Origin: Octopus vulgaris
Taxonomy: Eukaryota
Assembly (NCBI GenBank): GCA_951406725.2
Contig: OX597815.1
Location: 36,704,001-36,768,000 of the forward strand
Direction: 5' to 3'
DNA length: 64,000 nt
Part shown: one piece after another, positions 27,401 through 28,868 of the stretch
How the letters are laid out: the number at the start of each line of letters is the position of its first letter
How positions within the stretch are numbered: the stretch's first letter is position 1
The notes under the pieces: generated by a model
Told to the model about the DNA's origin: nothing
Database searches by the model: none
What the model saw: the letters and a program-made list of their open reading frames with translations, nothing else
Made by a program: the position numbers and the translations under genes

Positions 27401-28868
27401 TCTGGTACTTGACTCTTTTACTCTTACTTCTTTAAGTCATTTGACTGTAAATCATCATCGTTTAACGTCTGCTTTCCATGCTAGCATGGGTTGGATGATT
27501 TGACCGAGGACTGGTGAACCAGATGGCTGCACCAGGCTCCAATCTTGATCTGGCAGAGTTTCTACAGCTGGATGCCCTTCCTAACGCCAACCACTCCAAG
27601 AGTGTAGTGGGTGCTTTTACGTGCCACTGGCACAAGGGCCAGTCAGGCAGTACTGGCAATGGCCATGCTCAAATGGTGTTTTTTTACGAGCTACCTGCAC
27701 AGGAGCCAGTCCAGTGGCACTGGCAACGACCTCACTCGAATGTTTTTTAAAAATATGGAATGCTTCACGAATTTGCATGTCATCCTTACGCCTTGTTCAG
27801 GCTTCTAAGTTTGTATAAAATACCTTTATGGACAATATTTTTAACCACAGTTAAACTGCCATATCCAACAAGGAAACTATCAATTATCTGACAACAGTAC
27901 TATGTTTCTAATGATACTTAAGTGCCCATATTTCACACTTTATTAACCATACCTTTGAGAAAGAAATATAAAAACAAAACTCGAGTCATACCTAGCTTCT
28001 TCTAGCTGCTTTTCTCTAGCTTTCCTTTTAGCTTTTTTACCTTGAGTGTTGGCCAGACGAGCTCTAGCTTCTGATAACATTTCAAGTTCATCTTCATCTT
28101 TTAAATATATACAATTTTATTTATGAAATAATACTCAAGTTCTTATTCAACATTATAATTCTATGGCCTGGTGCTCTGGTTACAACAGTGAGAGTTCCAG
28201 TTGATTCACCGCCTGTTTGTGAAATTCATGTGTAAGTGGCTGAGCTCTCCACAGAAATGCATACCCTCAACATAGTTCTCAGGAAGAGTCAACATGACAA
28301 AGAATGTGACAAGGCTGGCCCTTTGAATTTCATATACAACTCATTTTTGCCAGCTGAGTGGACTGGAGCAATGAGAAAAAAAGAGTCTTGCTCAAGGATA
28401 CTATACACTGCTGGAAATTGAACACATGAACCTACACTTGTGAGCCGAATACCCTAACCACTACACCATGTGCCTTCCTAAAATTCTATACAGCATGCCC
28501 AAATAACCAGTTCTTCGAGGATTTTTTTTTTCAATTCTTTTTTTATCATTGTTGTTCCACATATGGTTGCCAAAAAGAGTCTAAGCTTATTTTATTTTAT
28601 ATCTTCAGTGAAACGAATCAATGAGTTTATATACCAATGTATTTGCTGTGGCTGTGTAGATAAAGTCAAAGTGCCTGCTGGTGTGTCAGCAGTTGAAACT
28701 GAATTAACTGCTGCTACCAAAGTATTTATTCGACTTATTGGACTTAATTTTGGAGTCTGTCGCGAATTCTATACTGAACTCTTATCAGCTATGATTCAAG
28801 GCAAAGATGAAGCACCATCCAAAGCTAAAGATACATCTGAGAGGCCAAAATCACCAGACAACAGTTGA
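3346..28868 (+). CDS. T-complex protein 11-like (TCP11L1/TCP11L2 family) gene, 9 coding exons, ~519 aa
   Basis: Exons 3346-3466, 6347-6458, 10231-10351, 11707-11927, 19920-20056, 20376-20605, 22500-22690, 25607-25773, 28609-28868 join in frame through GT-AG introns (1560 nt). TCP11-domain motifs: [73 protein letters not shown]1 vs L2 orthology cannot be resolved by eye. Confidence 0.88.
3818..3914. repeat. (GGT/GAT)n trinucleotide microsatellite
   Basis: Seen directly. Confidence 0.85.
3942..4212. mobile_element. hAT-type MITE
   Basis: 11-bp TIR cagtggttccc/gggaaccactg with 8-bp TSD ctctacat/ctctagat. Confidence 0.75.
5226..5567 (-). mobile_element. Short RTE 3'-end copy; further copies at 12490-12817(+), 24197-24424(+), 25021-25460(-), 25801-26096(-), 35347-35583(+), 48638-48953(-), 52090-52390(-)
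   Basis: Shared catcatcatttaacgtccgctttccatgctagcatgggttgg...ggatgcccttcctaacgccaaccactc core, matching the 3' end of the longer RTE copies. Confidence 0.85.
6347..6458 (+). CDS. TCP11-like coding exon 2
   Basis: tttcag acceptor, GT donor; encodes ...[24 protein letters not shown]. Confidence 0.85.
6803..7015 (+). mobile_element. tRNA-derived SINE family B; other copies at ~465-640(+), 27140-27310(+), 42235-42428(-), 55327-55562(-)
   Basis: gctggcagaa...gttcaaattc box, gtcgactttgc..ttc.tcctttc...gtcgataaat core, tail ccccttgt.gg..taaagaaata. Confidence 0.8.
10231..10351 (+). CDS. TCP11-like coding exon 3
   Basis: [44 protein letters not shown] flanks. Confidence 0.88.
10784..10880 (-). ncRNA. 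Minimal type I hammerhead ribozyme motif (Penelope-like element type)
   Basis: - strand: stem I, CUGAAGA (10869-10863), stem II gaagauu/aaucuuc, GAAA (10806-10803), C-ACGC-G stem III, then UC (GUC cleavage triplet) and the partner strand of stem I. Confidence 0.72.
11707..11927 (+). CDS. TCP11-like coding exon 4
   Basis: ORF 11707: [18 protein letters not shown]...[17 protein letters not shown] flanks. Confidence 0.92.
14346..14660. repeat. Minisatellite, ~28-bp unit atgtcttaagtgatctgtactccaatgc, ~10 copies degenerating rightward
   Basis: Unit periodicity seen directly. Confidence 0.85.
14850..16623 (+). mobile_element. 5'-truncated RTE-clade LINE (RT domain, C-terminus and repeat-containing 3' UTR)
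   Basis: [35 protein letters not shown] and MLHGSETW motifs with stops; ends ggacgttaaacgat(ggt/gat)n. Confidence 0.9.
17214..17249. repeat. (CT)n microsatellite followed by degenerate TG-rich tracts
   Basis: Seen directly. Confidence 0.85.
19920..20056 (+). CDS. TCP11-like coding exon 5
   Basis: [32 protein letters not shown] flanks. Confidence 0.9.
20376..20605 (+). CDS. TCP11-like coding exon 6
   Basis: TKMWLQ...[24 protein letters not shown] flanks. Confidence 0.88.
22500..22690 (+). CDS. TCP11-like coding exon 7
   Basis: [29 protein letters not shown]...; AG/GT flanks. Confidence 0.88.
22785..24056 (+). mobile_element. Full-length (1272 bp) mariner transposon with inactivated transposase
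   Basis: ~31-bp TIRs (ttgggtcatctcataaataatgcg... / ...tgcattattaatgggataacccaa), TA on the left. WVPH (~23300), VTGDEKW (~23402) and [10 protein letters not shown] (~23765, variant of YSPDLAPSDY) motifs with stops and frameshifts. Confidence 0.92.
25607..25773 (+). CDS. TCP11-like coding exon 8
   Basis: [13 protein letters not shown]...[20 protein letters not shown]; phases fit neighbouring exons. Confidence 0.85.
26601..27122. mobile_element. Tc1/pogo-type non-autonomous element
   Basis: TA flanks; ~23-bp imperfect TIRs cagtaaatcttcgagtatagtcc / ggattatacttgaggatttatgg. Confidence 0.65.
27451..27748 (-). mobile_element. RTE 3'-end copy forming the 3' part of the CDC5L-U6-RTE chimera
   Basis: Same family sequence and (gat)n tail; its 5' truncation point directly abuts the U6 oligo-U end. 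Confidence 0.88.
27749..27791 (-). pseudogene. U6 snRNA 3'-terminal fragment (43 nt) inside a retro-chimera
   Basis: - strand reads GCGTAAGGATGACATGCAAATTCGTGAAGCATTCCATATTTTT. This matches the conserved metazoan U6 3' end as I recall it (GCGCAAGGATGACACGCAAATTCGTGAAGCGTTCCATATTTTT) at 40/43 nt. Confidence 0.93.
27796..28098 (-). pseudogene. Partially spliced CDC5L retro-fragment (end of exon 4 + exon 5 + 5' half of intron 5)
   Basis: 27796-28088 aligns to 52746-53041 with about 10 substitutions and a 3-nt gap. 28089-28098 (catcttcatc) matches the exon 4 end at 53860-53869, so intron 4 is precisely absent. Confidence 0.9.
28609..28868 (+). CDS. TCP11-like last coding exon
   Basis: [13 protein letters not shown]...[18 protein letters not shown]...; TGA at 28866-28868. 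Confidence 0.88.

Follow-up and report, generated by a model that had tools for sequence, protein, structure and literature searches.

The window analysed here is a 64,000-nucleotide (nt) stretch of the Octopus vulgaris genome (contig OX597815.1, positions 36,704,001 to 36,768,000, here contig C2; 2.8 Gb in 227 contigs), in which a TCP11-like gene on the plus strand and a minus-strand gene that we take, from its peptide, to be CDC5L are arranged tail to tail. Inside the TCP11-like gene lies a three-part chimera of CDC5L pre-mRNA, the 3' end of the small nuclear RNA (snRNA) U6 and the tail of a long interspersed nuclear element (LINE). The anatomy that the first-pass annotation had described, with this order of parts and one orientation, minus strand throughout, is confirmed at the following coordinates; the chimera is listed from its 5' to its 3' end, and the source segments come last.

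28089 to 28098, minus strand: final 10 nt of coding exon 4 of CDC5L, fused to exon 5 at the exact junction (by comparison with the source)
27992 to 28088, minus strand: copy of CDC5L exon 5, 97 nt, with 1 substitution (alignment to the source)
27796 to 27991, minus strand: first 199 nt of the 392-nt CDC5L intron 5, with 8 substitutions and one 3-nt gap (alignment)
27792 to 27795, minus strand: 4-nt linker CAAG (sequence)
27749 to 27791, minus strand: U6 snRNA nt 65-107 with its five-T end (RF00026)
27451 to 27748, minus strand: 5'-truncated 3' untranslated region (UTR) of an RTE-type LINE, 298 nt, ending in (GAT)3 (repeat family comparison)
52746 to 53041, minus strand: source, CDC5L exon 5 and the start of intron 5 (alignment)
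53860 to 53869, minus strand: source, end of CDC5L exon 4, ahead of an 818-nt intron that is missing in the copy (sequence)

The CDC5L piece was copied from RNA. Window positions 27796-28089 align with 52746-53042 at 96% identity over 297 nt, the source lies 24.6 kb from the chimera, and a search of the octopus's own genome returned no other source among the best 40 of 402 candidates. Intron 5 has GT..AG ends, and the 199 source nt are present as 196. At the far end of the piece, GATGAAGATG at 28098-28089 is identical to the final 10 nt of the exon upstream (53869-53860, with GTAAG next), unlike the source intron before exon 5, which ends in TTATTAACAG. The copy thus passes from exon 4 to exon 5 at an exact junction without the 818-nt intron, and its template was therefore RNA. 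Nine of the ten exon 4 bases are informative, giving a chance match of 6e-6 at the window's composition; this value is raised somewhat by the likeness of the exon 4 end to a (GAT)n tail (GATGAAGAT is one base from the LINE tail's GATGATGAT), but the RNA template stands, because the copy would still begin exactly at the acceptor. The same resemblance suggests that the exon 4 end may double as microhomology with the target. A half-spliced CDC5L pre-mRNA from about 25 kb away, as first proposed, is thus what the alignment and the spliced junction support.

The middle part is the 3' end of U6. It matches RF00026 at 27749-27792 with 31.8 bits (E 2.7e-6); that this falls short of the gathering score, 44, is due to the presence of the last 43 nt of U6 alone, and an Rfam scan of the window gave nothing at gathering level; the comparison upholds the earlier identification, full T end included. 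The five T run into the LINE without added bases, a clean junction at which an intact T-run is joined in sense to a 5'-truncated LINE, as in U6/LINE chimeric pseudogenes. We considered the A-run after U6 as the poly(A) or target-site duplication (TSD) of an L1-type insertion and rejected this, as the A-run is LINE sequence. On the 5' side, the break at nt 65 falls on the first loop base of a stem-loop predicted at 62-72 (the internal stem-loop), and RNA folds of the junction and breakpoint regions are unremarkable (z -0.05 to -0.93). The linker CAAG also occurs 11 nt further on in intron 5 and at U6 nt 68-71; it may have been added without a template, repeat U6 nt 68-71 by a stutter, or be intron sequence reached by skipping 11 nt.

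The 3' part is a high-copy repeat (4162 genome candidates) of a family that encodes a reverse transcriptase (RT), as seen in a long copy in the window, and a further copy lies in CDC5L itself:

14500 to 16600, plus strand: long, degenerate member of the tail's LINE family, with an RT region (RVT_1, E 5e-10)
52100 to 52390, minus strand: copy of the LINE within CDC5L intron 6, broken on its 5' side at almost the same point; considered as the tail's source and rejected

The annotation had called the tail an RTE LINE; that it is the 3' end of an RT-encoding LINE with (GAT)3 holds, while the clade name is kept as a working label, suggested by relatives and motifs and not by a tree. The LINE open reading frame (ORF) contains HGSETW and RRGRLRKTW, and its copies have (GAT)n 3' ends; GSETW and RGRPxxxW-type C-terminal motifs with a short tandem-repeat 3' end are what we take to be marks of the RTE clade. 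The nearest named RT relative is from Octopus bimaculoides (76%), and relatives of full length are endonuclease-RT proteins of 1000-1100 amino acids, several with PF03372 and PF00078. The intron 6 copy is identical at 260/282 positions and shares no derived non-CpG site with the tail. The 29 closest tail copies elsewhere are 91.7-94.8% identical, and 5 of these 29 plain copies break near the same point by a crude motif test, so the break is a frequent one. The ORF also has a Cys/His-rich insert after the RT (window 15260-15400), and a PHD finger (PF00628) is annotated in many of its protein relatives. Within the 3' UTR (window 27613-27748 and other copies), units of about 66 nt are repeated in tandem a variable number of times, and in several LINE copies the break lies close to the A-run, where two units meet.

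The U6-LINE half of the chimera is nothing unusual in this octopus. Searched with an exact pattern, the genome gives 212 matches to the U6 3' end, and a reversed control gives 0. In the first 100 places (100 rows, 98 distinct flank keys), 79 U6 3' ends run directly into a retroposon, with 7 of the 79 partners labelled by eye, and six of them, the chimera locus included, are the chimera's LINE family. The U6 part starts at nt 1-21 in 59 of the 79, at nt 22-57 in none and at nt 58-74 in 20, the pattern being blind to starts later than this last zone. In a wider set of 165 U6 copies, where a second pattern (49 matches) raised the share of truncated ones, 120 were automatically assigned to a retroposon and 12 to the chimera's LINE family. 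U6-retroposon joins are the commonest U6 copies sampled, and the break at nt 65 lies within the usual truncation zone of nt 58-74; the genome-wide search for U6-LINE junctions that the annotation had advised thus found them. The chimera's own U6-LINE junction pattern has 2 exact genome matches, the chimera locus and a second U6-LINE copy (L005). Descent from L005 was rejected (259/288 identical, no shared derived site), as was a U6-headed short interspersed nuclear element (SINE) amplified as a unit, given two exact junctions genome-wide, no shared derived site and varying junctions; since the junctions differ, these are independent events. Another copy, L175, has U6 joined to the coding sequence of a similar LINE.

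The partners of U6 come from at least seven retroposon families. Fifty-two chimeras join at or near a SINE 5' start, often with extra bases, and 41 join short tails in a narrow zone (35/41 within 4-9 nt of the same motif in a length tally). Three-part retroposon products are not unique to the chimera locus. L142 (G000:C7:9559453) consists of U6, a near-complete 5.8S ribosomal RNA (Rfam) and a SINE, bounded by a 16-nt direct repeat with 2 mismatches, and is a TSD-bounded tripartite chimera. L094 (G000:C2:23366743) has two U6 copies head to tail, both with one variant base in common, followed by a short LINE-like tail. In L197/L213 (G000:C11:70304290), U6(69-107) is followed by 87 nt of another repeat and 185 nt of the chimera's LINE family; L197 is about 95% identical to L214 (G000:C20:45296246), where the LINE fragment sits inside the repeat, and the two have a common small deletion absent from three other copies and different 3' flanks. 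Their comparison suggests that in L197 an embedded, dead LINE tail was re-copied from read-through RNA and then joined to U6.

U6 copies of this genome show other arrangements as well. Palindromic loci (L004, L008/L010, L059, L110, L111, L115, L121, L155, L157 and L161) contain two inverted U6 3' parts with near-identical flanks on both arms, and are possibly, from this layout, a fold-back element family. At L078-L084 (G000:C1:139422693-139429774), seven probable true U6 genes stand in tandem; their 5' stem is a variant with compensatory changes. Among the copies, U6 has at least three 5' variants.

The surroundings of the chimera are given by three further features:

27412 to 27449, minus strand: 3' flank, a short remnant of the tail of another retroposon (family T2), with the same tail found after U6 in L041 and L068
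28661 to 28868, plus strand: TCP11-like host gene, probable last coding exon (Tcp11 profile match)
31520 to 31620, minus strand: last coding exon of CDC5L, with AATAAA at about 31297 and 31260

Pfam Tcp11 matches lie in plus-strand exons at 11707 and 20345, and the exon at 28650-28802 has a weak but collinear match (profile positions 397-435 of 436, E 0.25); a protein database search with this host exon gave no usable match. Tcp11 exons thus lie on both sides of the chimera on the plus strand, and the insertion is therefore intronic and antisense in the TCP11-like gene, in agreement with the annotation's placement in the neighbouring gene. CDC5L starts at 59850, has Pfam Myb and Myb_Cef matches in other exons, and ends with the last coding exon near 31600, so that the chimera is about 3 kb beyond its probable poly(A) site on the same strand. 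A truncated LINE copy with 140 nt of 3' flank is duplicated at 95% identity (window 58151-58503 and 61325-61683), one copy in CDC5L intron 1 and the other upstream of the start codon. Around the insertion itself, the 5' part of the T2 tail is not present upstream of the chimera, which makes a target-site deletion possible, and the LINE-tail/T2-tail junction, searched as a recurrent unit, has 1 exact genome match, the chimera locus.

The local pre-mRNA piece is the sole rare part of the chimera. It maps nearby and was copied from RNA, as in a local pre-mRNA co-insertion. We surveyed 464 kb around the window, a reach that excludes more distant sources, and found 82 matches to the LINE 3' end and 278 retroposon blocks after merging; of the 22 duplicate pairs of low copy number there, 2 adjoin the 5' side of a retroposon, one of them being the chimera's. 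A second candidate capture (G000:C2:36652415) was rejected as a SINE with its own TSD inserted into an older duplicate, and local pre-mRNA capture is represented by 1 case among the 82 LINE ends. The annotation had asked whether sequence 5' of U6 maps to nearby genes elsewhere too: it does at the chimera locus, while a genome-wide search with the 5' flanks of three other U6-LINE chimeras gave 0/3 captures, these flanks being mostly repeats and uninformative. Two further local copies were seen in the survey. L236:545-766 and L236:3034-3255 (G000:C2:36624545 and 36627034) form a 222-nt duplicate, 2.3 kb apart and 95% identical, bounded by acceptor- and donor-like sequences in one copy and with no retroposon attached; it is possibly an exon-precise, RNA-templated copy of a putative exon. 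At L263:2329-2635 (G000:C2:36960329-36960635), two segments 3.6 kb apart nearby are joined with a 2-nt overlap, which would fit a local two-template insertion.

That the whole chimera arrived in one insertion, by whichever route, is probable. The decisive argument is adjacency: the chimera holds the sole U6 match in 464 kb, and the CDC5L piece is 4 nt away on the same strand. By our arithmetic, the odds of an independent insertion within 5 nt of that U6 are near 1e-5, and any same-strand retroposon start would be that close in about 0.15% of cases at 0.6 blocks per kb. The ages of the parts also appear to agree: the LINE tail is off the majority base of close copies at 4/255 non-CpG sites (1.6%; 3 sites on re-alignment), and the intron piece has 8 substitutions in 196 nt over two lineages, about 2% each, which is consistent with one age.

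Four observations weigh against one insertion with a jump onto local RNA, the explanation that we propose below. There is no TSD around the whole insert, the best candidate being 8 nt with a mismatch, so that the 10-12 nt TSD peak of RTE elements (vertebrate data; PMC4245944) is not seen here. The age agreement comes from few sites, with comparison copies picked for their similarity to the chimera tail. The truncated T2 tail at the 3' flank means that the true 3' boundary could be further out or that target DNA was lost. Finally, no second local capture was found among the 82 LINE ends in 464 kb and the three other U6-LINE flanks. As to the first point, a TSD was found in 0/12 U6-LINE chimeras of the chimera's LINE family, compared with 6/12 chimeras of the S2 SINE and 1/12 in each control; its absence at the chimera therefore says little.

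The best surviving alternative is two separate events, a U6-LINE chimera and an abutting, RNA-templated CDC5L insertion made by break repair or internal priming. U6-retroposon chimeras are common alone, no TSD unites the parts, an exon-shaped local duplicate without a retroposon lies 80 kb away, and the alternative is named for tripartite structures in the available part of PMC4476161. It would nevertheless have to place the second insertion within 4 nt of the only U6 copy in the region, on the same strand and with matching divergence, and we regard it as unlikely.

We propose a single germline retrotransposition in which the RT changed template at least once, to an RNA made locally, and give this a probability of about 0.68. 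This reading is supported by the exact exon junction, the single local source, the common orientation, the 4-nt gap and the agreeing ages, and by the multi-template products elsewhere in the genome (L142, L094 and L197). First, the LINE endonuclease-RT would have primed on its own (GAT)n end in the last TCP11-like intron, about 3 kb beyond the CDC5L poly(A) signals. Second, the RT would have copied 298 nt of 3' UTR and continued into the U6 3' end, either by a jump or because U6 was already ligated to a cut LINE RNA; the structure is plain and the route is not, as the clean form of the junction appears to fit both. Third, the RT would have halted at U6 nt 65 in the internal stem-loop, the usual stop of truncated U6 chimeras. 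Fourth, still tethered to the chromosome, it would have jumped to nearby CDC5L pre-mRNA from which intron 4 was out and in which intron 5 remained; the template may have been a nascent RNA end or a stable intron-retaining RNA entered by an internal switch. Fifth, and speculatively, the RT would have crossed the exon 4-5 junction, and the product would have been attached to the target after 10 nt of exon 4, where the GAT-rich exon end may have paired with a target likewise rich in GAT. The resulting intronic retrocopy is dead and probably functionless.

More doubtful is the ligation of all three RNAs, by RtcB-type joining of cleaved ends, before a single uninterrupted reverse transcription. The clean five-T/LINE junction has the form that RtcB gives in the accessible part of PMC6789731, and the narrow join zone of the 41 short-tail chimeras could be a cleavage site. 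However, a pre-formed RNA has no need to land beside its source, and the CDC5L-U6 junction has four extra or skipped bases. Moreover, RtcB requires a 5'-OH end (PMC6789731, same part), whereas the SINE 5' starts at which 52 chimeras join should, we infer, be triphosphates.

More doubtful again is the capture of U6 and pre-mRNA together from a spliceosome acting on CDC5L intron 5, as the annotation had suggested in speaking of spliceosome-engaged RNA. The retained intron is indeed the next to be spliced, U6 is directly joined to it, and the source is local. However, U6 joins retroposons across the genome (the 79 of 100 above), 20 of the 79 break in the same zone of nt 58-74, and no captured pre-mRNA is evident in the other U6 chimeras that could be assessed. 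The jump also lands in the middle of the intron, with 199 nt to the 5' splice site and some 190 nt to the 3' end, away from the catalytic centre, and the U6 3' end is bound up in the spliceosome. A single case cannot show enrichment, and the suggestion is not sustained. Finally, a DNA-level local duplication or a misassembly, with the "exon 4" bases being target sequence that resembles the (GAT)n tail within one base, is very improbable: the start of the copy would need to coincide with the splice acceptor and follow an exon-4 variant of the repeat, and its 9 substitutions and one gap are not what an assembly error produces.

With its spliced junction beside a retained intron, the chimera gives unusually direct sequence evidence for the ability of a LINE RT to take up nearby nuclear pre-mRNA, in a capture most likely fixed in the germline, outside the L1 clade and the vertebrates, and it offers a route to local exon duplication where LINEs seldom yield ordinary processed pseudogenes. 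A wider idea, which we hold only as a doubtful one, is that LINE RTs of this lineage, tethered at their insertion sites, jump onto nascent transcripts, perhaps via bound U6. If this were true, the genome would hold a fossil record of germline co-transcriptional splicing, in which intron 4 is gone and just some 300 nt later the RNA is still unspliced or comes to its end; the U6-retroposon chimeras, in their hundreds, would be a screenable set, with U6-bearing insertions enriched for local half-spliced captures. The genome-wide set, with at least 212 U6 3' ends, about four-fifths fused to retroposons of several families, provides natural data on template jumping versus RtcB ligation and may matter more than the single CDC5L locus.

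The annotation had regarded the three-way chimera as undescribed. The full combination was indeed not found in the full-text literature searched (most subscription papers lie outside it), where we met no set of invertebrate U6-retroposon chimeras and no half-spliced local pre-mRNA joined via U6 to a LINE; the claim was overstated, though, as its single elements are published, namely U6-RTE chimeras, 5'-truncated U6 chimeras, X-U6-L1 tripartites and local pre-mRNA co-insertion. The statements below refer to the available parts of the cited papers; PMC11702581, PMC2912911 and PMC5470649 were also consulted. Like the U6/LINE and U6/SINE chimeric pseudogenes (PMC4476161; PMC6789731; PMC11838501), the octopus chimera has an intact T end and a sense, 5'-truncated LINE. 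PMC4476161 reports RTE-type partners in lizard (3) and in opossum (2; TSD absent, U6 5'-truncated); in platypus, L2 is the partner of a U6 that is mostly 5'-truncated. Those surveys cover vertebrates, and the word 'invertebrate' is absent from PMC4476161, whereas here the host is an invertebrate in which chimeras make up most of the sampled U6 copies and the chimera has a third RNA 5' of U6. A repeat table for an octopus includes the SINE classes 'U', with 19 insertions, and 'U-L1', with 2 (PMC13282606), and U-RNA-headed repeats are therefore already annotated in an octopus, in a text that does not contain 'snRNA' or 'chimer'.

The 5' part has its own counterparts. Seventeen mRNA/L1 chimeras, mostly first exons ending at splice donors with a near-full-length L1, were ascribed to proposed trans-splicing (PMC11838501), and a GPD2 fragment/LINE-1 chimera is also described (PMC1920257). 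They too have a unique cellular RNA fragment 5' of the LINE but, unlike the CDC5L piece, are not presented there as local or half-spliced. Closest in architecture are the tripartite retrogenes, mouse B2-U6-L1 and fungal WEIRD-SINE-LINE, explained by two template switches (PMC2104539), with three RNAs in one orientation, U6 in the middle and the LINE as the 3' part. On the 5' side they have an abundant SINE or noncoding RNA of unknown place, and their TSDs measure 14-16 nt, whereas ours begins with the single-copy pre-mRNA of the adjacent gene; its three RNAs share one orientation, but formal membership is unproven because no single TSD surrounds all three parts. Closest in the local capture is one human somatic L1 with a co-inserted precursor mRNA from its vicinity, ascribed to RT strand switching (PMC10191854), in which a local pre-mRNA was likewise reverse transcribed and placed at the 5' side; the passage concerns a human, somatic L1 event and mentions neither U6 nor a splice junction. 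By analogy, the octopus chimera would work like a tripartite template-switch chimera combined with a local pre-mRNA co-insertion, in this case apparently germline, RTE-type, and with a spliced junction that proves the RNA template.

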